IMG/VR virus record: IMGVR_UViG_3300032232_000235
Span: 1 to 33,200 of that record
DNA: 33,200 nucleotides
Origin: a virus
Taxonomy: Duplodnaviria > Caudoviricetes
Reading direction: 5' to 3' (one strand)
Positions 18,149-32,361 of the stretch are shown here, one piece after another. The position numbers were made by a program, and so were the translations under genes. The notes below the pieces were generated by a model. It was not told where the DNA came from. It did not search any database and saw only the letters and a program-made list of their open reading frames with translations. Positions within the stretch are counted from its first letter, which is position 1; each line of letters begins with the position of its first letter.

Positions 18149-21100
18149 CTAGCGCAGTCTCTTAGCGCCCGACAAAACTGGTGCGGTTTCTTGCAGTAGG
18201 TTCTCTGGGATATCTACACCAAGGTTTACCCCAGCATTTGCTAGTCCTTCGTACTTCTTATCAAAACTATCTTCAATAGTTTTTTCTGGATCATCAATAA
18301 AAATAGGGTGTTTAGCGGCGAACTTGTAGAACTCTTGACGTGCTACGTTCTCGGCTGGACTGCCAGCCAAATGCTCTACCCAAATGCGATCCAACAACTG
18401 AGACTTTTTGGTGTTTAACCTAAGCATTCTTTCTGATGCTGCTGAATTTGCACGGTCTACTAGCGATAACTTTTCTGGGCGAATACCGATAGCCTGTGCC
18501 GCAATGTCCAACTTATCGAATTCATCCTTGTGCAAGACAGTCTTGCCCGAAATACGTTTAGCACCTTCTTCATTAAGTCGGTAAGCAACGGCTGGTTTGG
18601 TAACGATTGCAGGAAATAGCTTTTCATACGCACGTTCGTAGTGCCCTTTTTGCGCAAGTTGATATGCAGTAGGTATGTTATCAAGCATGTAACTTGGGAA
18701 TGCGCCAAGATTGCTAATAACCATATCCTGCAGTTCTTGTTTAGCATCAGCGTAGTAGCGTGCATTACGGAAAAGCATCTCCCCCGGGTTAATACCAATA
18801 CGCTCGGTCAAACTCCAGTTAGTTACAGCCGCAGGAATTCCGCGTGCAACTGCATGCGCGGCTTTTATACCTAACTTTTCTGCACTCTCTTCGCCCATGC
18901 CAGACTGCATTGCTAGTTCAGATACAGCTCCGCTAAAGTCGTTCATTAGCATATTAAAGAACCAAGTCTCAAAGTCATCCCAGTCTTCGCCGTCTGGAGC
19001 AAACATGCGGGCAATCGCTGGCAATAATGATACTAAGAAATACAAAGGCGTACCCTCTGCCCCAGCCATTAAGAATGCAGTCACATTGATGATGACTACC
19101 TTACGGAAAGCTTCGCGGTGAATTTCTTTTTGGTAGGCTTCGTATTCTTTTATCTGCTGGTCTACGATCTGTGTGACGTTAGGAGCACCCTTGTACTGTG
19201 CTTCTAAGAATTTCTTAAACTCGTCCCGCTCTGCTGTTGTCAACGGCGCACCAAATGCCAGCCACATATCGCGATAGATGGCACGGAAAATAGTAATACT
19301 CACCTGCTTGAACTGCATCACAAGTGCACCGACAGGGCCTGAGAATGCACGTCCTTTTAGTTGGCGCAGATATTCACCAAGCGAAGCCGCCGCCGCGTCA
19401 CGCGCATCTTCAATCGCTGCGTTAAATGCCTCTTCTTCTGTGTACTTTAGTGGGTCACCTGTATTGGGGTCACGTTGTATAACGCCACGCTCATCGCGTT
19501 TGTCAGCAGTTAAGTATTGCTCATACGCTAAATCAAATACAGACATCAGCGTTACTTCACGAGTCAAGCGGTCAAGCTGATGGAACGGCATCGCTATGCC
19601 TTGCATGATTCGGCTAAACATCCCGTTGCTATACAGCTCGGATGGGCGCTCTGCAAAATCAAACACATCACTGGTTTGCGATACGTTAATGTCGCCGTCG
19701 TCGGTAAATTTTTGTGCGGCACGGGCAGATGCGCCCTTTAGGTAGCCACCTTCCACAATAGAAGGCCACGATATTTCAGCCTTCAAACCTTTACCGATTG
19801 GAGCAAGCGTGCGTTTAGGCATTGTCCGCATGTACTGACCAAAGTATTTAGCCATTACTGCATTTGCTTTAACGACACCGTACTTACCGCCTATGGTGCG
19901 CTCAGCCATAATAGGGAATGCCAAGACGTTCATTAGCGCACTAGCAGGCGCGGTCAAGTTGACCATGAACATCATTTGGTTAGCACCGCCAGCAAATCTA
20001 GCCGCCGCACTTTTATCTTCCATGCTAAAGATGTGCTTGTAGCGTTTTTCAACTTCGTTGATGTAGTCGAGTGCTTCGGTCTGGCGCTTTCCTTGTACAA
20101 ACGCACGAATGTAATCATGTGCGTTGCTCATGTTGTTTAGGAACGGCTGAACATACTTGAACCGAGACTGTTGATATGCCGCCCTCACAGCTGTATCCGA
20201 GAACACACGCAACATATCACCACTTGCGCCTTGCACGGCACGGCGGTTGATAAACATCTTACGCATGCTTTGTTGCGGCAATAGGACGTAGACAAGTTGG
20301 TCAACTGCGCCTTTAATTTCGCTCTTAATAGCATCAGCCGACTTCTTAGTCGTAAAGGCTTGGCCCCCTTGGACTGTAGTCACTGTGTCAGATATATCAT
20401 CGATAAGTTGATTGACGTCTCTTAGCGCACCACCTATATCTTTGTTGTCGGTGTACAACTGAGATATGGCGTTACCCGCCCGCATGCTTTCAGCAGCAGC
20501 TTTTTGAGTTACGTTGCCGTTGGATAGTTCAGCGTACCGTTTGTCGTACGCCAAGTCACGATCAATGTGATTTTCAAATGTGTAGAACTCAGTGCGTCCG
20601 TTAGCAGTAACTTGGAACCAAAAGTCTCCGAATCTCCGTAATGGGAAATAGGGGCGGCTAAAGTTTTCTTCAGCAAACTGCTTGTTGATCTTGCGTATCA
20701 AGTCTTTCTTTTCTGCTGACGTTTTACCGCTTGCTAGTACGCGCATTTTCATTTCACGGACAGTAGCCTTTAGTAAGTCAGTGTAGTAATTACGAACTTC
20801 ACGATACAAGTTTTGGAACTTAGGATCAAGTTTGTTCCATGCATCAACAAGTTGCTGCGGTGCAACTTTATCTTTAGGCCCAGCAGTTAGTGGGTCTATA
20901 TAGCCGGGGCCTTGCGGGTCAACTTCTATGCCTTGGATAGTAGCTTCCAACATGACGCGGGACATCAAGCGAGATTGTGCTGGTGCATCCAACTGCATCT
21001 GCGCCCATTTCTGAATGGTGTCTTTGGCACGGCTAAGCATACGCCCACGGTATGCAAGCATGTCAGTGATAATCTTTACTGCCGAGCCGATGTAAGGATT

Positions 21101-24100
21101 ACTTTGCTGTACATCCTCTTTAAGCATACGTAACCCTAAGAATGGGAACTCTAAACTACGTAACTTAAATTTGCCTGCGCGACGAGCCGCGCTAGCTAAA
21201 CTAGATGCTGTAGGAATACTAGCCATTGCACCTTTAAGTGCATCGCTTAGACGGACTGCTGCATCCTCGGCGGTACGCCACTTACTTGTAAGCGGCCCCT
21301 GCTTGTATCTACCCTTCTTACCTTTGATCGGTGGGGCAAAACGTAATGACCCAGAGATTGCACCTGCTGGGCGGAACGCAGAGAAGATTTCATTTGCTTG
21401 GATTATTGTTGCGCCAGCTACATTGTCGGCACCAAACATCTTCATTGCAAAACGCAGTAACGAGTTATACACCGACCCTTGTGTTGGTGCATATTGGATA
21501 GTACGTAATTTCTTTTGAAAGTCAGCGTTAGTCAGTGCTTCAGCAACAAACTCAAATACGTTCTTAAATCCGTAGGCTTCAATATTTAACTGGCCTTTTG
21601 CGTAGTTGTACATGACATACAACTGAGTCACTGCTTCACGTTGGCGTTGGGTTAAGCCTTTGGTGTCACGCAATACAAACTCAGTAGCGGCGTGCACTAC
21701 TTCATGCAAAAACACACGGTTAGTTAAACCAAATTGCCCGCCAGTTCTAAGGCTGATTGCGTCAGAGCTAGGCATGTACAAGCCAGAATGCACGAGGCCG
21801 GGCATAGCCTTATCAAACTCATCACGCACTAGCGCCAACTGCATGTTCAATGCAGAGGTGTTGTACTGGGGTTTGTACAATTCTTTTAGACCTGCATAGA
21901 CGAGTTCTAAACTCTCAGGCCGATCGTAGTTCTTGAAGTATTTTTCAAACAGTTCTGGGTAGGCACGGCGTACGTAGGTAAAGAGTTGAACCTGCTGCTG
22001 ACTAGACTTGCTGTCTATGTGCTGGCGTACCAATTCTCTTTCACGATTGAAACCAATCGTCGTAGGCAGGTTCAGTTCTGCCAACCGTGCGGCAAGTACG
22101 GAGTACAAGCCAGATGTGTTCTTAGCTACAGCACGTAGAGCGCCGCTGATGTCGTTGTTGTTTATTGCTTCAACTACGGAAGGGTGCAAGCCCTTTTGCA
22201 CGATCTGTCTAAACGTCTGATCAGCCTTACCTTCTGCAAGCATGTCATCAGATACAAAAGTACCATCGCCACGCAAGACGGCGTTTAAGCCTTGAATGAT
22301 TGGGTCGTCGCTGGTTATGCCGAATACTGACTTAAGTGCCTCAATGAACTCACGTACCCACTGCTTTGCTTTTTGGAACTTAGTACCAGCATAGTAGCGA
22401 TCAGATAGAAGATTAGATGCGTTAACCGCCCAGAATTCTGAAGGGTTAAACAGCGCGTACATTTCATACGGCACATCACCATCTTGGATAGCCTTAGACG
22501 CAAGCGCCCAAGCAGCCATGTCTTGCTCAGTGTTGGCTTTGATTACGTTATTTAGATAGAACTGAAGAGCTACATTCTTGGTCTTAGCGGCTTCTTTTAG
22601 TTTGTTTCTAATCTGGCGTGACCACTCATTACGGATCAAACGGCGTATCTGCACGGGCAACATACGCTCGGTATGGTGCAAGATTTCATGGACGGCAGTG
22701 TCTTCTTTAGTAGCGGCGTAGCGTTCAGTTTCTTTATCAGTCTCGAATGGGCTAGGTGCTTTGCGTGTAACTAAGCGAACTATTCTTGCAATAGGGGTGT
22801 AATACCCAGCGGTGCCTTCGTTAGCTTCTTTTTCCCTTTTTGTTTTTGGAAGAGCAATCTTAATAGCTAGGTCATCTGCAAGCGCAGGGTTCTGAATCAA
22901 GAACCAAATAGCAAAGTCGGCGGTCTCTGGGCTGATTCGTCCAGCTTTCTTAGCGTCTTCTAGTGCTGTTATGACACGACCAAACCCACGTTGTTTACTT
23001 TTATTACTACGATTTTTATCTGCACGCTCTTGGATGCTTTCGTTAATCTTGAGCATCGCCTCTGCGTATTGCTCTGCAGTAATCTTGCCATCTTTGTAGA
23101 GCGCATCTAGTTTGTTTATGCCCCTTTGATTATGGGCAATAGATTCGGCAAGGCTTGGCTCAACCTCTCCTGACGGTAAAGCGTTAGCAACGATGCTTCT
23201 AAACATGTTCCTGCGTCTATCTGCAGCCGCAGCAGATGCAAGGTTTGGAGTTGTAGTAGCAGAATCAATAGTTCTATTGACTGTCTTTGTGGGGGGCGTG
23301 AATACATTACGCTCAAGCCCGTCACGGTTCTCTGGTTTGCCTGATAAGAGAGACGCCAGATTTGCAGGATTGTCAGGGACGATGAAGACCGACGAGCCGT
23401 CCATCTGCTTGAGATGGTTGTCAATCAGGAACTTGTATGTTGGTTTGTTTACGTTGATGCAACCAAACGAATAACGTGAGTCTGTCTCGCTATCGCTAGC
23501 AATAGCCTTTGCCCGCATTGAAGCATCAGATTCATTGAGCCACACCGAGTGCATCAGCGTCATGCTGTACTCGCCACTAAAAACTTTATCTAGTACAAAT
23601 ACCTTACCAAAGTCATACTCACCAGCAGTTGTTGCTTCCCCAGCGCTACGTAATGCATCACGAAGACCGAATGTGAAGAACCCTGCGGGGGTAATACGGT
23701 TTTGTGGGAGGGTATTGTTACCTTTAAAGAAGTCCCCGGGGGCCAATCCTGTCAGCGTCTTGGTACGCAACAATAGAGTCCCGTTAGGCTTAAACAAATA
23801 CGTGTGGCCTTTGGGCTTATCTACGATGGTAAGGATCTTGTCGTCTGCTTGCAGCTTATCTTTGATTGCTGGATACAAAACTTTGTAAGACTGTTTAGCC
23901 CCATCCGACATCATCTCCGTGCCTGTTGGCAAGTCGGCAAGTACCTGTTCCGTTATGGCAATCGTGGCGGTTGGGTAAGTAACAAACTCGGCGGTGCTTA
24001 CATTTGTTGGGTTAAAGATGATCGCCGCAGATAGGACACCTATATGCAACTTACCAATAATGTCGCGAATGGCTTCGGCAATAACCTCGGCACCTTCATT

Positions 24101-27100
24101 GGCGTAGCGAACAATGTCCTCTTTGACTTTGAGAATAAAGTCACGCGACCCCGCGCTCAAACCATAGTGTTTCTCTAGGCGATCTATATCTGGTGCAGGG
24201 AGTGCCGCAAGCTGTGGTGCTACGGTTTCTTCTACGATACGGGTTTCACCCTCGATGGTGTAGGGCTCATGAGTAAGCGCAGTAAATGCGTTCTCGGCTT
24301 CTTTCTCTAGCACTTCCCATTCAGCATGCGCTTTTTCTCGTGCGTCAGATAGTTGCTTAAGTTTTACAGGAGAAGGCTGGCTACCATCAGAAGGTTCTTC
24401 TTCATTAGACAGTGCTTCATCGGCAAGCGATAGAACTTCCCACGCCTTCTTTGCCTTGGCAGTAGCAGAATCATAGAGCGCTTGTAGATCAGGCGACGCT
24501 TGGTCAGGTGGCGGCAGTGCAGGTACTTGCTGTACGGTTGCAGGTGGAGTTATAACTACAAGGTCAGTACTGACAGGGGCTGGCATCCCATTAAATTCTG
24601 GTGCAGCCCGTTCCGCTACAGCAATATCAACTTCTAATCTTGAAATTTGCCCCCACAATCCGTCCATTTGTCGGGTAAGCGCCGCCCACTCTCTACCTTT
24701 TTTGCTATCAGGTTTAGGTTCCTTGCCTGTGGGCGTAAGCAATTTATTGCGTTGACCCTTTAGTTCTGCAATTTCTTGCTCAAGTTCAGCGACAGTTTTT
24801 GGCTCTTGTCTTTCTAACGCACGCACCTGCATCCCTGCAGCTTTTGCTTTCTTTGCATCTTCAAGGTTAGTAATAAGTCTAGGGTTAGACGGTTTGTCAT
24901 ACCTACTAGTACTTGGCACAATAGCGTAGTAGTCGTAGCCCGGCCATAAATCACCCGTACTTGGGTCTATATCATCTTCATCTTCTATATCAAAATAAAT
25001 ACCTTCATCGTCTATTTTTTCGGCTATTTCTTGTTCGTTTTCAACAGGCGCAAGACCACTGCTATCTGCAATATGTTTCTTCTCAGCCTTATCTATATCT
25101 CTAAGCGCTTGCTTACGCTTGTCTTTTAACGCATCAACTTCTTGTTCCGCAGCTTCAATTTTGTCTTGTAGCGCTTCGCGTTTAGAAATAGGTAATGTAG
25201 ATAAACCTTCTGATAGTTCGTCTTCAAGGGCACCGAGTCTTTCTTCGGAAGCATCGAGTTCATCTTGTATTTGTTGGCGTTGCTGTTTAAAGTCAGGCGC
25301 AGTAGTTTCAGCTTTGATCTCTTTAGCAGGTGCAGGTGGTGCGGCCTCTAATTTCTTTTGTACGTCTGGCAGTTCTAATGATTGAATGTCGTCAAGCGAT
25401 AGCCCGTGTTTTTCTTGGCCTTCTTTTATGGAGGCTAAATAGGCTTCAAACTCAGCAATCTCATCTTCTGTGTAACCTCTTAGTCTGGAAAATTTCTTCC
25501 AGTCGCCGCTGTTGTAGGCGGCTCTTTCTTCTGGTGTCCAGTCTTTAGGGTTGCTTTCTTTTTCTTTAGCTGCTACTTTATTAGAAAGATCTATATGTTT
25601 AGCTTCCCACTCTTCAACTGTTTGCGTCGGTGCGGCTTCTTTCTTTTCGCCAAAGATATCGGGAGGCTCTGGGGTTCCGTCTTCGGGTGGTGTAAATACT
25701 TCTGTAGATTGAATAGCTGCGCGTTCGTCGGCGGCTTCTTCAGCGGCTAACTTCTCGTCTTCAGTTTGTTGAGGTGCGGCCTCTTCAGCATCTATCTGAT
25801 CTTGGTTGTACTTATCTAAGTCGGCGATAAGATCGTCTTCAGATTTTGTTTCCTTACTTTTTTCTTTGCGTAAGAATCCTTTTGACTTGGCTAAATCTTC
25901 TGCCGACATCGGACGTTGGTCAACAATGGTTTGGGCTAGTTTGTTTGTCTGCTCTTGGACAACCTCACCAGTGCGTTGCAATGCACGAGCGATGACAGCG
26001 TGTCCGCCACCCATACCAGCACCAGCCATTAAGCCTTGTGCGGCGGCTTCTTCTACACCTTCATTCCAAGGACGACCAGTAGCAAGGTTAGTAAAGATTT
26101 GTTCCTGCGCCGACTGGGGCATCTCTTCAAAGACACCTTCTTTAATCAACTCATTACGTACAACTTTCGCAAGAGATTGATTTGCAGCACCAGTACCTAC
26201 ACCTTTAATTCCTGCAGAACGTGCGGCAATTTCGGTTTCTACGTCGCCAATACCAAGTTTGGACGCTGCTTTACCTGCAACAATACCAATAGCCGCAGTG
26301 CCAAAACCCGCCGCTATCGCAGGGGCTACGTAATCTTCCCAATCTTTACCAGCAGCACGGGCTTGGTCAGCGATAGAACCGGCAGTCTGTGCGCCCTCGG
26401 TAGCGCTCGCGGCGGCGGCAATTTGGACAGTTTTTTCTTTTACTTTCTCAGTAATAAACTTCTGTGCGGCTGCGCCTTTTATTCCAAGTTCTGTGGCTTC
26501 TGTAGCGGCTTTACCTGCAAGATACCGTACATATTTACCAGCAACAGCGCCAGCACCAACAGTTCCGGGGAGAGACTCAATAATGGTGTCTAGCAGTGCA
26601 AGCGGGTTTACTGCAAGCGCACTAACAGTATTAAAGAACCCTTTGGCTTGAGCAACTTCGTTTTGTTGCAACTGCATTTGTGGAGACTGCAGTCCAGAAA
26701 TAAACTGGTTAGTTTTCTCGGGGTCATAGCCGAGTTTATCCAGCATCTTGCCCCACTGGCCTATTTGTAATGGGTTAATGTTTGGGTCGCTAGGAATCCA
26801 ACCAGTAGTAAGTTGCGCCAAACCAGCAGCGGTTTGCCCTAGACCCACAACACCTTTAGCTACGGAACCAGCAACGTCTTGCCCAAAAGAACCAACGCCA
26901 TATCCTTCTTGTTCAGCTTGGCGCTTAAGTAAAAACTCTTTAGTTGCGGCTTGCTCGGCGGCTTTCTTAGAGGCAATGCCTTGCTCTCTATCTTTGCGTG
27001 CATTACCACGCATGATCTGCTGATCGATAGCTTCGAGCTGACGACCGGGGGTAAACATAACCGACTCAGGACTACCGCTCTGGCGCATAGTCTCCAAGTT

Positions 27101-27355
27101 CTTCTGGTAGTCAACGTTGGGCGGCTCCATCTTGATGCCGCGTTCAAATATAGATTTGCCTTTAGCAACTGGGCGGGTAGGCATCTCCTCCGCTTCTTCC
27201 ATGCTGACGCCAGACGTTCCCACACTCGTAGGAACGGTCATTCTTCCTTTTACGGATTGGCGTGCTACGGCGTCACTAGGCGGTGTCCATGCTTCGCTAG
27301 ATGCGTCAGAGGATGGCTGTACTGCTACAGCATCAGAAGGTGGTGTCCAAGCCAT
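18149..27355 (-). CDS. Giant internal virion/ejection (polyvalent-type) protein with an L,D-transpeptidase domain and two zincin metallopeptidase motifs
   Basis: 3068 aa, last gene of the virion operon; Gly/Ala-rich N-terminus with EG..EE..Q...EQ; YkuD motifs IVDK, ITPAG.F, H1269 and SFGC1299IN; HEILH at 1556 with SEFWA; HEVVH at 1884 with FEFVAEA; large helical C-terminus with YFPLRRFGDF. Confidence 0.85.
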   Translation of the reverse strand: MAWTPPSDAVAVQPSSDASSEAWTPPSDAVARQSVKGRMTVPTSVGTSGVSMEEAEEMPTRPVAKGKSIFERGIKMEPPNVDYQKNLETMRQSGSPESVMFTPGRQLEAIDQQIMRGNARKDREQGIASKKAAEQAATKEFLLKRQAEQEGYGVGSFGQDVAGSVAKGVVGLGQTAAGLAQLTTGWIPSDPNINPLQIGQWGKMLDKLGYDPEKTNQFISGLQSPQMQLQQNEVAQAKGFFNTVSALAVNPLALLDTIIESLPGTVGAGAVAGKYVRYLAGKAATEATELGIKGAAAQKFITEKVKEKTVQIAAAASATEGAQTAGSIADQARAAGKDWEDYVAPAIAAGFGTAAIGIVAGKAASKLGIGDVETEIAARSAGIKGVGTGAANQSLAKVVRNELIKEGVFEEMPQSAQEQIFTNLATGRPWNEGVEEAAAQGLMAGAGMGGGHAVIARALQRTGEVVQEQTNKLAQTIVDQRPMSAEDLAKSKGFLRKEKSKETKSEDDLIADLDKYNQDQIDAEEAAPQQTEDEKLAAEEAADERAAIQSTEVFTPPEDGTPEPPDIFGEKKEAAPTQTVEEWEAKHIDLSNKVAAKEKESNPKDWTPEERAAYNSGDWKKFSRLRGYTEDEIAEFEAYLASIKEGQEKHGLSLDDIQSLELPDVQKKLEAAPPAPAKEIKAETTAPDFKQQRQQIQDELDASEERLGALEDELSEGLSTLPISKREALQDKIEAAEQEVDALKDKRKQALRDIDKAEKKHIADSSGLAPVENEQEIAEKIDDEGIYFDIEDEDDIDPSTGDLWPGYDYYAIVPSTSRYDKPSNPRLITNLEDAKKAKAAGMQVRALERQEPKTVAELEQEIAELKGQRNKLLTPTGKEPKPDSKKGREWAALTRQMDGLWGQISRLEVDIAVAERAAPEFNGMPAPVSTDLVVITPPATVQQVPALPPPDQASPDLQALYDSATAKAKKAWEVLSLADEALSNEEEPSDGSQPSPVKLKQLSDAREKAHAEWEVLEKEAENAFTALTHEPYTIEGETRIVEETVAPQLAALPAPDIDRLEKHYGLSAGSRDFILKVKEDIVRYANEGAEVIAEAIRDIIGKLHIGVLSAAIIFNPTNVSTAEFVTYPTATIAITEQVLADLPTGTEMMSDGAKQSYKVLYPAIKDKLQADDKILTIVDKPKGHTYLFKPNGTLLLRTKTLTGLAPGDFFKGNNTLPQNRITPAGFFTFGLRDALRSAGEATTAGEYDFGKVFVLDKVFSGEYSMTLMHSVWLNESDASMRAKAIASDSETDSRYSFGCINVNKPTYKFLIDNHLKQMDGSSVFIVPDNPANLASLLSGKPENRDGLERNVFTPPTKTVNRTIDSATTTPNLASAAAADRRRNMFRSIVANALPSGEVEPSLAESIAHNQRGINKLDALYKDGKITAEQYAEAMLKINESIQERADKNRSNKSKQRGFGRVITALEDAKKAGRISPETADFAIWFLIQNPALADDLAIKIALPKTKREKEANEGTAGYYTPIARIVRLVTRKAPSPFETDKETERYAATKEDTAVHEILHHTERMLPVQIRRLIRNEWSRQIRNKLKEAAKTKNVALQFYLNNVIKANTEQDMAAWALASKAIQDGDVPYEMYALFNPSEFWAVNASNLLSDRYYAGTKFQKAKQWVREFIEALKSVFGITSDDPIIQGLNAVLRGDGTFVSDDMLAEGKADQTFRQIVQKGLHPSVVEAINNNDISGALRAVAKNTSGLYSVLAARLAELNLPTTIGFNRERELVRQHIDSKSSQQQVQLFTYVRRAYPELFEKYFKNYDRPESLELVYAGLKELYKPQYNTSALNMQLALVRDEFDKAMPGLVHSGLYMPSSDAISLRTGGQFGLTNRVFLHEVVHAATEFVLRDTKGLTQRQREAVTQLYVMYNYAKGQLNIEAYGFKNVFEFVAEALTNADFQKKLRTIQYAPTQGSVYNSLLRFAMKMFGADNVAGATIIQANEIFSAFRPAGAISGSLRFAPPIKGKKGRYKQGPLTSKWRTAEDAAVRLSDALKGAMASIPTASSLASAARRAGKFKLRSLEFPFLGLRMLKEDVQQSNPYIGSAVKIITDMLAYRGRMLSRAKDTIQKWAQMQLDAPAQSRLMSRVMLEATIQGIEVDPQGPGYIDPLTAGPKDKVAPQQLVDAWNKLDPKFQNLYREVRNYYTDLLKATVREMKMRVLASGKTSAEKKDLIRKINKQFAEENFSRPYFPLRRFGDFWFQVTANGRTEFYTFENHIDRDLAYDKRYAELSNGNVTQKAAAESMRAGNAISQLYTDNKDIGGALRDVNQLIDDISDTVTTVQGGQAFTTKKSADAIKSEIKGAVDQLVYVLLPQQSMRKMFINRRAVQGASGDMLRVFSDTAVRAAYQQSRFKYVQPFLNNMSNAHDYIRAFVQGKRQTEALDYINEVEKRYKHIFSMEDKSAAARFAGGANQMMFMVNLTAPASALMNVLAFPIMAERTIGGKYGVVKANAVMAKYFGQYMRTMPKRTLAPIGKGLKAEISWPSIVEGGYLKGASARAAQKFTDDGDINVSQTSDVFDFAERPSELYSNGMFSRIMQGIAMPFHQLDRLTREVTLMSVFDLAYEQYLTADKRDERGVIQRDPNTGDPLKYTEEEAFNAAIEDARDAAAASLGEYLRQLKGRAFSGPVGALVMQFKQVSITIFRAIYRDMWLAFGAPLTTAERDEFKKFLEAQYKGAPNVTQIVDQQIKEYEAYQKEIHREAFRKVVIINVTAFLMAGAEGTPLYFLVSLLPAIARMFAPDGEDWDDFETWFFNMLMNDFSGAVSELAMQSGMGEESAEKLGIKAAHAVARGIPAAVTNWSLTERIGINPGEMLFRNARYYADAKQELQDMVISNLGAFPSYMLDNIPTAYQLAQKGHYERAYEKLFPAIVTKPAVAYRLNEEGAKRISGKTVLHKDEFDKLDIAAQAIGIRPEKLSLVDRANSAASERMLRLNTKKSQLLDRIWVEHLAGSPAENVARQEFYKFAAKHPIFIDDPEKTIEDSFDKKYEGLANAGVNLGVDIPENLLQETAPVLSGAKRLR
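27263..27352 (-). repeat. Duplicated N-terminal decapeptide AWTPPSDAVA
   Basis: Residues 2-11 and 22-31 of the giant protein are identical, with several synonymous codon differences. Confidence 0.9.
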
Positions 27356-27357
27356 GA

Positions 27358-29871
27358 TTACTGCTTAGTATAGGTTACGCCATCAGGTCCGACTAGTGAT
27401 TGTCCTTTTTTAAGTGTTGCCCATTTCTCATTAAATGCAGTGGGGGTCATTGCGCCAGTAGCTGCTGGTGCCGCTGCAGGTGCAGCGTTAGGGTTCGCTT
27501 GGTTAATTCCGGGAATATCTGGCATCGTTGTATTTCCAAGAACAAAATCTTTAGACTGGCCTATTGTTTTGGCATGTCCACCCATTGTTTCTTCGTAATG
27601 CTTTTTATACATTTGTTTGTACTGACTATCTTGATCTTTAGACCCAATAAGGTTCTTTGCCGACATTTCTTGAAGCGCTAATTTACGGGCTGTCTCTGAA
27701 GATTTAAGCGACAAATTACCAAGGATTTGCTTAGTTCCAAGATCAATTGCATTAGGACCTTTATCAGAGGTATGAACTTGTTTGGCTGTCATATCACCAG
27801 CCGTAGCTTTAATACGAGCTTGGAACTGCGCAGGTGATTCGTTCTCTTTGGGTTTTTCAGTTGCTAACAAATTAGCTAAATTATCGTCATACAAACGCTC
27901 GGGCAACTTAGGTGGTTTAGGCGCACTACCCGCCGCGCCACGAGGTTGGCGTAGAGCCGTCGTCATCTTGGCGTAATTAGCGCCCTCTGCAGACGTACGA
28001 GCACGAGCTTCTTTAACCGCATTAAGTCTTGCGCCCTCGGCGTCTTGTACATCCTTGCGGGCTTCACCAAACAGACCCATGTTTTCCTTGCGCTTAGCGT
28101 CAGCCAAGTGGAATTGCATCTGGTTAAGGTAGCGTTTCTCAGCACGATCAGATTTAGCGGCTTCTGCGAATCCAGTACCAAGGGCACCTGCTGCTGCACC
28201 GAGGCCACGCATAGCATTTCCGCCTTGAAGGATAGCTGGAATTGCTTGCAAAGCAGCAAAACCTTTGTTTTGTTCTAGGACCCTAGCACTGGTCTCTTTA
28301 TCTTCGGCTACTGATTTCTCAAACGCGCCGTATGGATCGGGGCCAGCCATTTCTTTTAGCTCATTAAAAGACCGCTTTTGTGCAGAAAGTCTACCCGCAC
28401 GGCTTAGAGGGCTGTACTGTGGGGTATTCCTTAGCCTTTCTTGTGAAGCCATAAATGCTTGTGCCATAGCATTTTGTGTAGGCGTGCCAGTAAAGCCAAC
28501 TGAACCGTCGTCTTGTGGTTCAGACAATCTTTCATCATCTTCTTCGGCGTCTTCTGGCGGCACAAAGCTAGCATTCTTACCACTAAAAGCCAAAATGCCA
28601 CCACCAGCAGCACGGACTACGCCGTCTTGAGTTTCAGGGGGTAGGCTATTAAACGCACTGCCAAGGCCACGGTCGATAGTAGCATTCTCTGATAGGCGTT
28701 TGTTTTCCGCCATTTGCTTCTGTAGGGCAATCTCAGCATCTAAGTCACCACGAGCCGCCGCCATCTGGTAGGAGGCAGGTAGTTGCTTTGCTGGTAAAAA
28801 TTTGGAAATGCTTCTGACGTTCTCTTCGCTAGTTACAGAGCCTTGGTCACCTGCATAGTATTTAATTTCTCCGCCGTCGGCGTATCCGTGGACTTCGCCA
28901 CCGCCTGCTCTGCTTAGCTGATTGATACCATACGCGCCAAGACCCAAAGCACCTGCCGTTTGAATAGCGGAAGGAGGGGCTTGATACATCTGCGTAGTAG
29001 ATTGCTGACCCAGCGGTAGCCCACGAATCATGTCGGACATAAAGCCCAACTGTTTGTATGGATAGTTTTGCTGGTTGAGGAAGTCTTGATACGAAGTATC
29101 CAAACCTTTTTGCATCTGAGCTTGTTGTTGACCACCGTACTGCGCTTGCAGTTGGTTGATGCCCATCTGCTGACCATACTGGTTTTGACCGAGTTGGCCC
29201 AAGTTAGCGGCAGACTGATTCAGCAAGCCGTAGCCAGCAAGTTGGTTCTGTAGCCCTTGGTTATATTGGTTCTGTGCGCTATTGAAAGCCGTGTTGTAGC
29301 CTTGACCAATAATGCTATTTAGACCCATATTACGGTTACGTTCATTCTCCGCAGCCATAATCGCTTCACGGGAACCGCCAAACGCACCGGCCTGTGTTGC
29401 CGCGCTCTGTTGTTTAGTAGCACCAATATCATACTGACGATTAGCCTCCGCTAATTGAGGAGCCAAAGACATTTGCAAGTAGGGGTTCATGTAACCACCG
29501 ACTTGGCTCTGGAATCCATAAGGATTAGCCTGACCTGCTACATTCATGCCGCCAAGTCCAGCCATAGTTGCGCCAGCAGTTGCTTCCCCCGTTTGCGGAG
29601 TTACAGACATACCTTGAGCGTTTTGCATAGCCTGCTGCTGCATTGGGGAAAACCCTGCAATGCGGTTTTGGTCATAAGTCTGGTACGGGTTTTGATTGAC
29701 GTCGGTTAACGCCTGACCCTTAGCCAGTATGTCTTTAGCATACGGTTTCGCCCATTCAGGCAGTTCTGTACTAGCCTTTTGTTCTGCGGCTGGTTGGTCG
29801 TTACCCCCGTCCATATAGTAAAGACGGCGACCGTCGCGGGAATATCCGTTGTGTTTATTTGGGATCAACAT
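27358..29871 (-). CDS. Internal virion / DNA ejection protein (837 aa)
   Basis: Gln/Gly/Asn-rich N-terminal half with GAFGGSR and YPY.QL motifs typical of phage DNA-transfer proteins; GG-motif linker; coiled-coil C-terminal half. Confidence 0.8.
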   Translation of the reverse strand: MLIPNKHNGYSRDGRRLYYMDGGNDQPAAEQKASTELPEWAKPYAKDILAKGQALTDVNQNPYQTYDQNRIAGFSPMQQQAMQNAQGMSVTPQTGEATAGATMAGLGGMNVAGQANPYGFQSQVGGYMNPYLQMSLAPQLAEANRQYDIGATKQQSAATQAGAFGGSREAIMAAENERNRNMGLNSIIGQGYNTAFNSAQNQYNQGLQNQLAGYGLLNQSAANLGQLGQNQYGQQMGINQLQAQYGGQQQAQMQKGLDTSYQDFLNQQNYPYKQLGFMSDMIRGLPLGQQSTTQMYQAPPSAIQTAGALGLGAYGINQLSRAGGGEVHGYADGGEIKYYAGDQGSVTSEENVRSISKFLPAKQLPASYQMAAARGDLDAEIALQKQMAENKRLSENATIDRGLGSAFNSLPPETQDGVVRAAGGGILAFSGKNASFVPPEDAEEDDERLSEPQDDGSVGFTGTPTQNAMAQAFMASQERLRNTPQYSPLSRAGRLSAQKRSFNELKEMAGPDPYGAFEKSVAEDKETSARVLEQNKGFAALQAIPAILQGGNAMRGLGAAAGALGTGFAEAAKSDRAEKRYLNQMQFHLADAKRKENMGLFGEARKDVQDAEGARLNAVKEARARTSAEGANYAKMTTALRQPRGAAGSAPKPPKLPERLYDDNLANLLATEKPKENESPAQFQARIKATAGDMTAKQVHTSDKGPNAIDLGTKQILGNLSLKSSETARKLALQEMSAKNLIGSKDQDSQYKQMYKKHYEETMGGHAKTIGQSKDFVLGNTTMPDIPGINQANPNAAPAAAPAATGAMTPTAFNEKWATLKKGQSLVGPDGVTYTKQ

Positions 29872-30313
29872 CTAAATGCTCCTTGCGGTACTCATCAAAC
29901 CGCTCGTAAAAAATTGTTTTCCACATGTCAGGCAAAACTTCTTTTGCTTTTTCTGGGCCAACACATACATGGACCGCATACGCTAAGATGTTTCCAACAG
30001 CATATCTCAAGCCGTGGGCAATCTCAATGCCATGCGGGTCTTTGTTTTTTTCAAAGGAATTAGCAGTTTCATACGCAGAAACTACAACAAGCCACATAGG
30101 TAGGATTTGTTCTTGGATACTGCGATAAAACGGATTAGCTGGCAAATAAACCAAACATGTTAAAAAAGCACGATTGATCTCATCTGCCGAAACAGGTTTA
30201 TCTTTGTCTATGAGGTCGTCCCAGATGTGCGCTAAATCAGCGAACGCATGGTAGACATTCAAAGCATCTTGATTGCCCCCAAACCATTCTAGTTTCCCAC
30301 GACTGTTTTTCAT
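29855..30313 (-). CDS. Small helical protein with a DDxxD motif; putative isoprenoid-synthase-fold / prenyltransferase-like enzyme
   Basis: HIWDDLIDKD (D32-D36) at the end of an amphipathic helix; ATGA-coupled to the upstream gene and overlapping the downstream gene by 17 nt. The CDS is secure; the function is an inference. Confidence 0.6.
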   Translation of the reverse strand: MKNSRGKLEWFGGNQDALNVYHAFADLAHIWDDLIDKDKPVSADEINRAFLTCLVYLPANPFYRSIQEQILPMWLVVVSAYETANSFEKNKDPHGIEIAHGLRYAVGNILAYAVHVCVGPEKAKEVLPDMWKTIFYERFDEYRKEHLDVDPK

Positions 30314-32361
30314 GCAGGTAGGTATTTATCCGCACGGTTGTTCTTTGCAACCTTGCCCTTACCGACTGTACGTTTCCGTGATGCCTGAACTCTGTCTAGC
30401 ATAGCGTATAGTTTGCGTGCGCCAGCCTCGGTTGAGCCATTGCCAAACTCCGACACGATACGGGCTGGAACTACAAATTCACCGTCGGCTAAACGAGCAG
30501 GTTGCTTCTTGCCTATTACGGCAGGGATCGAATCAGATACGCCATCTCCCGGCCCGCGAAGTAAACGACCGCCATCAGAATAGCCACCCAAGTTATATCG
30601 CGCATCGGAGAGTCCTCCTCCTGCCTGCTGTTGAACGTACTGCTGATCGTCTTGGTTGTACATATAGCCAAGTCCGGGGTTTGCATCTTGTTCTCTTTTT
30701 CTTGTCATGCCAAGCAAGCGCCCTATGGGTCCTACAGGCTGATCATCCGGGGCGTCTTGGACATTTAAATCGCCACCAATTCTGTAACGGGGGATACCGC
30801 CATCAGCCATTTGAATGTACTGACGAGTTTGGGGGTTGTAGGCGTAACTAGGTATGCCATTAGAACTAGGTGGTATATATGACCCCATCGGAGTCGTCAG
30901 CCCATCCCTTGCAACCCCTGCTGAAAAGTTATCTAAAGCTGCCGCCGCGCTAGCCCCAAAATCTTGAGGTGCGTTGCTTGCCCCACCCATTGATGGGCCA
31001 CCTATGTATTTTCGGGCTTGTGGGTCATATGTATAGGAGGGTCTGCTCTCTTCAGCTTCGCCACCTTCAGCCAACCGAGTACCCTGCATATTAGGTTCAC
31101 CGTTCATGGTTACACCGCTGTCGCTGGTAGGCGCAAGCATATTGGTAGACACAGGAGACTGATAAGGCGTAGCAAAAGATGACGTAGCCATGTTAGCCAT
31201 TGGGTACATAGTGTTCGCACCCATCGCGGCTTGGTTAGACATCCGCTCAACAGGCATACCACCATCAGCAAAATTGTAGAGGTCTTTAGCCTCGGTTGGG
31301 CTTATTGCTGTGTATGTAGGTTGTTTAAAGTATTTTTGCTGACGACCAAAATTGCCGCCCCCATATAGCATCTCATCGTAGGTTGGTACGTCTGGTGCAG
31401 GTGCTGGCTCGTATTTTCCGCCAGTAAAACTATATCGCTGACCCATATCTCTGTCGGGCTCAGCGGGTTTTGGAGGCCCTTTTTGCATACCCATAGCGAC
31501 GCCTGTGGCGGCAACAAGGGAAGATTTGGGGTTTGCAGCAGCATAATCGTAAGCGTTTTCAAACGAAGCGCCGCGCCCCATAGCTGATATTCTTTCCGAA
31601 GGGGTCATATCTGCAAAAGATTTTGGTATGTCAGGCCCTGCATAACTAGTCCCTTGCATTGCTGACTCGCCGGGGAATGTGGTCCCACCACCTTGAGGTG
31701 CTGCTGTTGGTATCCCTTGCGTTGTTGGTGCTTGCATACCTACATGAGCCGTTTCGCCACCTAGCATGTTTTGACCAGCGTACTGCCCAGACTCTGGGTT
31801 TATAAACGCATTCGGCCCTGTAGTCGGCGTGACGTTATACCCAAGTGCATTTACTCCGTTTGCTGCGCTCCCAGTTGTCTGCGCTAGGCTAGGTGCAACA
31901 CTTGATTGAACACCTTGGGTAGCTTGAGCGGCTCTAGCCATAGCATCGGTGTCGGCGGCAACTGCTTGCCCTGCAGACGGAGCCGCTTGTGAAACTGCAC
32001 CCGCAGTGCCAAATGAGCTAGCCAAACCTGCGCCGCCATAAGCACCAAAGCCAGCCATAATGCCTTTACTCAGACTACCAGACTGTGCAGTTCTTAAACC
32101 ACCTACGAGGAATCCTGCTGTCATTGGGTTTATAGCCCCACCAGAAACAGCCATTAAACCTGCGCCAGCTATCATAGGAAGCATGGCACTAAGGAACCCC
32201 GCTTCGGGCAGTCCAGTGTGTGGGTTAATAGTTAAAGACCCACCGTTTGCTTTTGCAATTTGTTGAAGACTTGCAATCTCACCTTTATCCATGTGGATAA
32301 GTTCGGTGTCTTTACCACGACCGTGAGCGGCTAAATGTTTGGCAGCGTGTTGTAGGCTCAT
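30310..32361 (-). CDS. Internal virion / ejection protein (683 aa)
   Basis: N-terminal GRGKDT.LIH...GE...TINP.TGLPEA domain, Gly-zipper hydrophobic segment, repeated xA[DE]GG motifs, C-terminal GPGDGVSDSIPA...LADGEFVV domain like that in tape-measure proteins; GAGG RBS. Confidence 0.8.
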   Translation of the reverse strand: MSLQHAAKHLAAHGRGKDTELIHMDKGEIASLQQIAKANGGSLTINPHTGLPEAGFLSAMLPMIAGAGLMAVSGGAINPMTAGFLVGGLRTAQSGSLSKGIMAGFGAYGGAGLASSFGTAGAVSQAAPSAGQAVAADTDAMARAAQATQGVQSSVAPSLAQTTGSAANGVNALGYNVTPTTGPNAFINPESGQYAGQNMLGGETAHVGMQAPTTQGIPTAAPQGGGTTFPGESAMQGTSYAGPDIPKSFADMTPSERISAMGRGASFENAYDYAAANPKSSLVAATGVAMGMQKGPPKPAEPDRDMGQRYSFTGGKYEPAPAPDVPTYDEMLYGGGNFGRQQKYFKQPTYTAISPTEAKDLYNFADGGMPVERMSNQAAMGANTMYPMANMATSSFATPYQSPVSTNMLAPTSDSGVTMNGEPNMQGTRLAEGGEAEESRPSYTYDPQARKYIGGPSMGGASNAPQDFGASAAAALDNFSAGVARDGLTTPMGSYIPPSSNGIPSYAYNPQTRQYIQMADGGIPRYRIGGDLNVQDAPDDQPVGPIGRLLGMTRKREQDANPGLGYMYNQDDQQYVQQQAGGGLSDARYNLGGYSDGGRLLRGPGDGVSDSIPAVIGKKQPARLADGEFVVPARIVSEFGNGSTEAGARKLYAMLDRVQASRKRTVGKGKVAKNNRADKYLPA

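Follow-up and report, generated by a model that had tools for sequence, protein, structure and literature searches.

How podophages prepare their ejection proteins for packaging and membrane insertion is poorly understood, and the role of the helper known as IVP-A has been obscure since T7 gp13. Hardies et al. assign IVP-A to the acetyltransferase type and regard it as an assembly factor that stays out of the virion, with T7 gp13 having homologues in P22 and epsilon15; they had already noted an unrelated substitute in phiRIO-1, PA11, and CW02 (Hardies 2016, PMC4819975). In T7 (gp13), P22 (gp14), Bcep22 (gp69, of the phrog_4470 family), and JC1 (gp63, of the same family), a gene of ~140 to 160 amino acids (aa) holds this slot, often overlapping the first ejection gene, and larger ejection proteins and a DarB-like giant protein follow. 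Here, we describe the same layout around a 152-aa open reading frame (ORF) at positions 29855..30313 (minus strand) of IMG/VR record IMGVR_UViG_3300032232_000235, a 33.2-kb phage fragment (Duplodnaviria; Caudoviricetes) that is ~53% complete and whose full 33,200 nucleotides are referred to as the window. The ORF belongs to phrog_21390, a very large unannotated family that fills the IVP-A slot and alternates there with the GNAT family. On balance, we lean toward reading its product as a helper of the IVP-A type, present in place of the GNAT protein of related phages and probably a Mg-dependent enzyme built on a cut-down isoprenoid-synthase-like fold. The combination of an invariant Asp cluster, a probable prenyl-synthase-like scaffold, and alternation with GNATs offers a testable hypothesis, namely, that ejection proteins are chemically tailored.

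On the enzyme side, the closest described systems are the trans-isoprenyl diphosphate synthases (PF00348) and their relatives MoeN5 and ComQ/StheQ, which, like the phage protein as predicted, form an all-helical bundle with a DDxxD motif ending a long helix. In trans-prenyl synthases, the first Asp-rich motif (FARM) is similarly placed at the end of a long helix. ComQ-type enzymes keep the FARM and a pseudo-second Asp-rich motif (pseudo-SARM, NDxxx) ~130 residues apart, and the ComQ gene adjoins a small Trp-peptide substrate gene (StheQ preprint), whereas the phrog_21390 gene adjoins that of an 837-aa ejection protein. The small subunits of heteromeric medium-chain prenyl diphosphate synthases have no Asp-rich motif and depend on a catalytic partner for their action (review PMC7839719).

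A second occupant of the IVP-A slot

The first-pass annotation of the window, made from the sequence alone, had read this ORF as a possible minimal prenyltransferase gene coupled between two ejection-type genes, and its coordinates for gene and motif were exact. The ORF starts with ATG, and its HIWDDLIDKD codons (residues 29 to 38), which encode the Asp-rich motif, lie at 30200..30229 (minus strand). Upstream, the ATG shares 4 nucleotides (nt; ATGA) with the TGA stop codon of a gene for a 683-aa Gly/Ala/Pro-rich virion-type protein (30310..32361, minus strand). Downstream, the last 17 nt form the start of the gene for the 837-aa ejection-type protein (27358..29871, minus strand), residues 30 to 324 of which match phrog_4287, "DNA ejection protein"; an AAGGAG box, read from the sequence, lies 7 nt upstream of the start of this gene.

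Such coupling of the small gene recurs across the 93 related loci that we compared (L001 to L094 less L088). In all but five, it shares 4 to 58 nt with the gene that follows; in those five, the two are 1 nt apart. Most loci of the window's clade also have a 4-nt overlap on the upstream side, and the 13 loci of the clade of Achromobacter phage CF418P1 have an upstream gap of ~300 nt. In many relatives, the downstream ejection protein is split in two (~330 to 410 aa plus ~530 to 620 aa), and in the others it is one long protein, with the giant protein coming next in both cases; CF418P1 itself keeps the order of small gene, ejection protein(s), and giant protein.

Seventy-one phage records contain a homologue of the CF418P1 ejection protein. 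In all 10 of the other cultured records examined (Bcep22, PEp14, SopranoGao, PBC5, POI1126, Atu_ph08, Itty13, Mwe-JY25, Skulduggery, and RHph_TM3_14A), a phrog_4470 acyl-CoA N-acyltransferase gene, of the kind that belongs to Bcep22-like and F116-like phages, stands just upstream of the ejection gene, directly so in nine; in POI1126, one 88-aa ORF lies between the two. JC1 has the same arrangement, with gp63 in the slot, and the JC1 paper does not include gp63 in its list of virion proteins (PMC9144972). The first-pass statement that many podoviruses keep a small GNAT-like gene at this position is thus borne out by these 10 records, by JC1, and by Hardies 2016. No phrog_4470 gene was found in the window record, ~53% complete as it is.

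Because the relatives carry a GNAT-type phrog_4470 gene at the corresponding position, phrog_21390 is a second, non-orthologous occupant of the IVP-A slot. The window protein shares the defining position of IVP-A, being encoded directly ahead of the first internal or ejection gene in a podovirus IVP operon, and by analogy a non-virion helper role would be expected of it (Hardies 2016). It does not share the acetyltransferase sequence family: the PHROG scan returned phrog_21390 only, and the predicted structure is an all-helical bundle with DDxxDxD, whereas phrog_4470 has the GNAT alpha/beta fold and an unrelated sequence. The gp39 family of phiRIO-1, PA11, and CW02 is likewise an unrelated, small, non-structural substitute for the acetyltransferase-type IVP-A at this position (Hardies 2016). 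Any kinship between the two substitutes would be remote, since tblastn of 50,697 phage records with phrog_21390 queries matched only CF418P1. The phrog_21390 family is far more abundant than this earlier-noted substitute.

We propose that the small helical protein would act as the non-virion helper encoded directly ahead of the first internal or ejection protein, substituting for the GNAT-type helper of related phages by non-orthologous replacement. As a putative Mg-dependent enzyme, it may act on the ejection proteins, or help to assemble them, before packaging.

The phrog_4470 gene is unannotated in Erwinia phage PEp14 (L102:1846-2307, plus strand) and Sinorhizobium phage PBC5 (L104:1971-2423, plus strand). 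At the slot, the PEp14 record annotates an opposite-strand ORF, PEp14_00023, probably a mis-call.

Family spread and conservation

The window protein matches phrog_21390 with an E value of 4e-24, and the function of this family is listed as unknown. A collection of 5.8 billion proteins holds 1217 relatives, and a profile of 12 divergent members retrieved at least 1853 related clusters from it; no relative in this collection comes with a Pfam domain already assigned or with a name that informs on function. Viral contigs contain 327 stretches related to the protein, and the CF418P1 clade is represented among such contigs as well. Achromobacter phage CF418P1 (29% identity) was the only cultured phage found by the tblastn search, for which the queries were the window protein and its L094 homologue. 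Prophages in Cupriavidus and Achromobacter genomes also carry family members; the hosts seen are Burkholderiales. Many family entries from JGI are labeled "purine-cytosine permease-like protein," a name ill-suited to a soluble helical phage protein of 150 aa, which looks like a propagated mis-annotation.

A DDxxD not conserved among homologues would have refuted the first-pass annotation. All 248 sequences checked carry DDxxDxD (50 of 50 aligned homologues and 198 of 198 listed database relatives), and the motif is invariant down to ~25% identity. A protein of 152 aa and the same composition would contain 0.07 DDxxD and 0.006 DDxxDxD motifs by chance, and the motif taken alone is therefore weak evidence. 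In an alignment of 12 sequences reaching down to 25% identity, the invariant positions are A17, D32, D33, L34, D36, D38, L54, L57, P58, N60, F62, E88, R103, G119, E137, and Y142 (numbered as in the window protein). To judge from the alignment, conservation of D32, D33, D36, D38, N60, E88, R103, G119, E137, and Y142 appears enzyme-like, in line with the helper being an enzyme, and the Asp cluster together with N60, E88, R103, E137, and Y142 may form a metal/diphosphate site. EF-hand or other Ca-binding loops, HD domains, and MazG-like proteins were considered as readings of the motif and set aside on the sequence pattern alone.

One database protein, P0121 (401 aa), is a natural fusion of a phrog_21390-type domain, with the motif HFWDDLIDRD, to a class I S-adenosylmethionine methyltransferase (Methyltransf_11, E value of 9e-14). 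In this fusion, the domain is again grouped with a group-transfer enzyme. P0121 forms one cluster from two contigs and was the only longer or fused form found in a search for such forms; its nearest relative in viral contigs, the L100 homologue, is unfused (57% identity).

Predicted fold

The first-pass annotation had described the protein as helical, and the AlphaFold2 model (44-row alignment) consists entirely of helices, at residues 8 to 11, 15 to 36, 43 to 59, 61 to 89, 93 to 102, 106 to 134, and 139 to 146. Confidence in the model is high (predicted local distance difference test [pLDDT], 93.1; predicted template modeling score [pTM], 0.86), and the helix spanning residues 15 to 36 carries the Asp-rich motif at its C-terminal end. 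A second model, made for a homologue from a Cupriavidus prophage that shares 36% identity with the window protein, scored similarly (50 rows; pLDDT, 94.6; pTM, 0.87). We compared both models with 48,161 representative Protein Data Bank (PDB) chains using VIA-align. In the resulting lists (50 rows each), the matches are mostly trans-prenyl synthases, MoeN5, and class I terpene synthases, and the top matches include 5h9d_D (188 residues), 9kp1_A, 3aqb_A, and 3qkc_A. A cut-down isoprenoid-synthase-like fold is accordingly likely on the basis of these models, but not established, because Foldseek gave no PDB hit better than an E value of 1.7, the hhalign probability was 0.7%, and the ESM score was at chance level. 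The fold similarity may reflect descent from isoprenoid synthases.

Overall, the interpretation given in the first-pass annotation is partly supported, and several lines of evidence count against the enzyme reading that we favor. Foldseek, the check suggested for the fold, returned no isoprenoid synthase among its PDB rows (best E value, 1.7), and against BFVD it found only four uncharacterized members of the same family. When the family profile was compared by hhalign with an alignment of 32 proteobacterial polyprenyl synthases (built from genomes G001 to G032), the probability was 0.7% and the DDxxD was not aligned with the FARM. Pfam scans gave 0 families for the window protein at an E value of ≤10 and no match for 44 homologues, none of which matched PF00348 at an E value of ≤1; a PDB sequence search with the protein and the profile reached an E value of 0.064 at best, to a designed scaffold only. 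As had been noted from the sequence, the protein has a single DDxxD and lacks a second Asp-rich motif, and no catalytic isoprenoid synthase is less than about twice as long, their alpha fold having ~10 or more helices and ~260 to 350 residues. A84, N85, and E88, the nearest conserved candidates, do not form such a motif. No pseudo-SARM was found in the 152 aa, nor is the DDxxD accompanied by the NSE/DTE triad of class I terpene synthases, and the ComQ-type combination of FARM, pseudo-SARM, and a Trp-peptide neighbor is absent. The matches 5h9d_D and 9kp1_A are, judged by their length, probably small regulatory, non-catalytic subunits, and the small-subunit resemblance is the best structural resemblance in both lists. 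The linkage to ejection genes, tight in nearly all loci, fails in the L100 homologue (174 aa), whose gene follows that of a 1138-aa tail protein among tail-fiber-like genes, with no ejection gene; a scan for further contexts of this kind returned the same contig and five weak, probably spurious matches. Finally, IVP-A of T7 is not known to act enzymatically, so that the slot may call for a chaperone and not an enzyme.

The last two points bear on a somewhat improbable alternative, in which the protein serves assembly as a chaperone or scaffold and has no enzymatic activity. Until procapsid loading, it would keep hold of the core proteins or of the N-terminal leader or Gly-rich start of the ejection protein, with its acidic cluster used for binding and not for catalysis. 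In keeping with this, IVP-A is placed among assembly proteins absent from the virion (Hardies 2016), the gene is translationally coupled to its neighbors, and the predicted fold comes closest to that of small regulatory subunits, which function through partner binding (PMC7839719); the tail-fiber context of the L100 homologue would also fit. However, a set of nine polar or charged residues that stays invariant down to ~25% identity is more suggestive of catalysis or metal binding than of a chaperone surface, the N terminus of the partner is highly variable despite the strong conservation of the small protein, and the usual occupant of the slot and the fusion partner in P0121 are both from enzyme families. 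Even if the protein is only a chaperone, thousands of phage genomes from the environment would gain a helpful annotation.

The structural lists suggest another alternative, which we consider very unlikely. The protein could mimic a small subunit, binding a host prenyl diphosphate synthase or the undecaprenyl carrier lipid and altering envelope synthesis, with its operon position being incidental. The chains 5h9d_D, 9kp1_A, 3aqb_A, and 3qkc_A are all small or small-subunit-sized chains of heteromeric prenyl synthases, and the ESM Atlas feature search led to HexPS-like, HEPPP_synt_1, and DUF2600 as the nearest named clusters, with a score of 0.76 that is at chance level and weighs against a close relationship. 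The L100 homologue also lies outside an ejection module. However, conserved coupling to ejection genes and exchange with the GNAT-type IVP-A point to virion assembly, and the hosts seen are Burkholderiales, which to our knowledge use homodimeric prenyl synthases. For comparison, we considered component I of the heptaprenyl synthases of S. aureus and B. subtilis, HexA of M. luteus, and the small subunit of plant geranyl diphosphate synthase. Whereas small subunits have no Asp-rich motif (PMC7839719), the phage-encoded phrog_21390 keeps DDxxDxD invariant and has no partner gene nearby. Pfam scans gave no match to the small-subunit profiles PF07307 and PF22538, and no gene for a partner large subunit (PF00348) was found in the record.

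The ejection-protein N terminus as a candidate substrate

If the favored reading of a Mg-dependent helper is right, its target would be the N-terminal region of the downstream ejection protein. In the window, this protein begins with a 20-aa leader (MLIPNKHNGYSRDGRRLYY), followed by M-D-G-G and then a conserved LPEWAKPY segment. Across the loci, the leaders of this neighbor are ~20 aa long and fall into at least three unrelated classes, MLIPNKHNGYS.DG.R.Y, MFKLSxLLxFLLGP, and MFKIWKWLFNPDWF (window residues 1 to 45; relatives L002 to L081). After the leader come a Met and a Gly-rich run, with GG[GDS] within the first 50 residues in 55 of 78 unique N termini, and then a conserved [ILV][PA]x[WYF][ALV] segment. 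Some relatives (L069, L070, and L048) begin directly at the post-leader Met, and from these patterns the leader looks removable or recognizable. The first 330 aa of the 837-aa protein had no tblastn match in the phage records.

Relatives with a GNAT gene in the slot have ejection proteins that start either with MG(K/G) or with a hydrophobic leader before KKGSSKAPAPDP. The MG(K/G) start is found in six of them (PBC5, Atu_ph08, Mwe-JY25, Itty13, Skulduggery, and RHph_TM3_14A) and, in POI1126, at an internal Met. The Gly-rich beginning of the mature domain is therefore the one feature common to phages with either occupant of the slot. The MG-start proteins are encoded at L104:2468-3670 (PBC5 gp19), L106:1468-2628, L108:1282-2457, L107:1102-2583, L109:1465-2628, and L110:1459-2547. 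Proteins encoded after GNAT genes begin MGKGSSKAP, MGGGKGKSKAP, or MGKPKAP, and the CF418P1-type ejection protein (L001:5844-7031) begins MGCMSTE. A Gly at position 2 with a Ser or Thr a few residues on resembles the eukaryotic N-myristoylation signal, which would make the N terminus of the ejection protein a candidate for acylation by IVP-A.

The first-pass annotation had gone further, proposing a true minimal prenyltransferase that binds a prenyl diphosphate through Mg on DDxxDxD, perhaps as a dimer, and prenylates the first ejection protein for membrane insertion. We regard this as unlikely; prenylation of an ejection protein is a possibility that lacks support, since the Trp suggested as its acceptor varies among relatives. 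The aromatic position of the LPEWAKPY segment is W in 37 of the 78 N termini, Y in 25, and absent in 16, and the other suggested acceptor, RRLYYMDGG, belongs to a leader that is only one of the unrelated classes, which differ between clades. In the first 120 residues of the neighbor, only P38, A72, and Q78 are near invariant, and there is no invariant nucleophile, a point that also tells against an enzyme acting on this region; with the variable aromatic residue and the unrelated leaders, it led us to judge that the acceptors are not conserved. A predicted complex of the small protein with these 120 residues scored 0.01, which is uninformative either way. The absence of a second metal-binding motif and of any sequence-profile relation to polyprenyl synthases, together with best structural matches that are probably non-catalytic subunits, likewise argues against a prenyltransferase. 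No PF00348 gene was found in the ~53%-complete record, no isoprenoid pathway genes lie nearby, and our full-text literature searches found no report of prenylated phage virion proteins or of such a phage system.

There is evidence on the side of a prenyltransferase, too. The fold lists are mostly trans-prenyl synthases, MoeN5, and class I terpene synthases, the Asp motif at the end of the long helix is invariant, and the invariant Arg, Asn, Glu, and Tyr residues could complete a diphosphate site. The slot otherwise holds an acyl-CoA N-acyltransferase family, which makes lipid or acyl transfer to the neighboring protein a coherent theme, and the MG(K/G) starts in GNAT-bearing relatives would fit it. 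A broader version of the idea, which we rate as quite unlikely, is that whichever protein occupies the IVP-A slot, a GNAT or a mini isoprenoid-synthase-like protein, covalently lipidates the Gly-rich start of the first ejection protein, by acylation or prenylation, and so provides a membrane anchor for the trans-envelope DNA conduit. If prenyl diphosphate binding proved true, phrog_21390 would define a minimal isoprenoid-synthase fold; if lipidation did, this would be the first lipidation system for phage virion proteins and the smallest known prenyltransferase.

Neighboring genes

The last gene of the ejection operon (18149..27355, minus strand) encodes a 3068-aa giant virion protein with an LPD39 domain (PF18858; E value, 1.2e-14) and a DarB-like C-terminal region (phrog_10089; E value, 2.7e-39), and the remaining half of the window is a replication module. 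The giant protein contains two HExxH-type zincin-like motifs, HEILHH and LHEVVHA, and a SFGCINV stretch, which we take to resemble the catalytic Cys motif of L,D-transpeptidases. These motifs suggest protease and cell-wall-acting domains. PHROG and Pfam scans gave no match for the 683-aa protein. Short repeats containing [AS]DGG or GGG are abundant in both the 683-aa and 837-aa proteins, for example, YNFADGGMP, QMADGGIPRY, GGYSDGGRLL, and HGYADGGEIKYY, and at the C terminus of the 683-aa protein is a segment, GDGVSDSIPA...LADGEFVVPA, that looks conserved.

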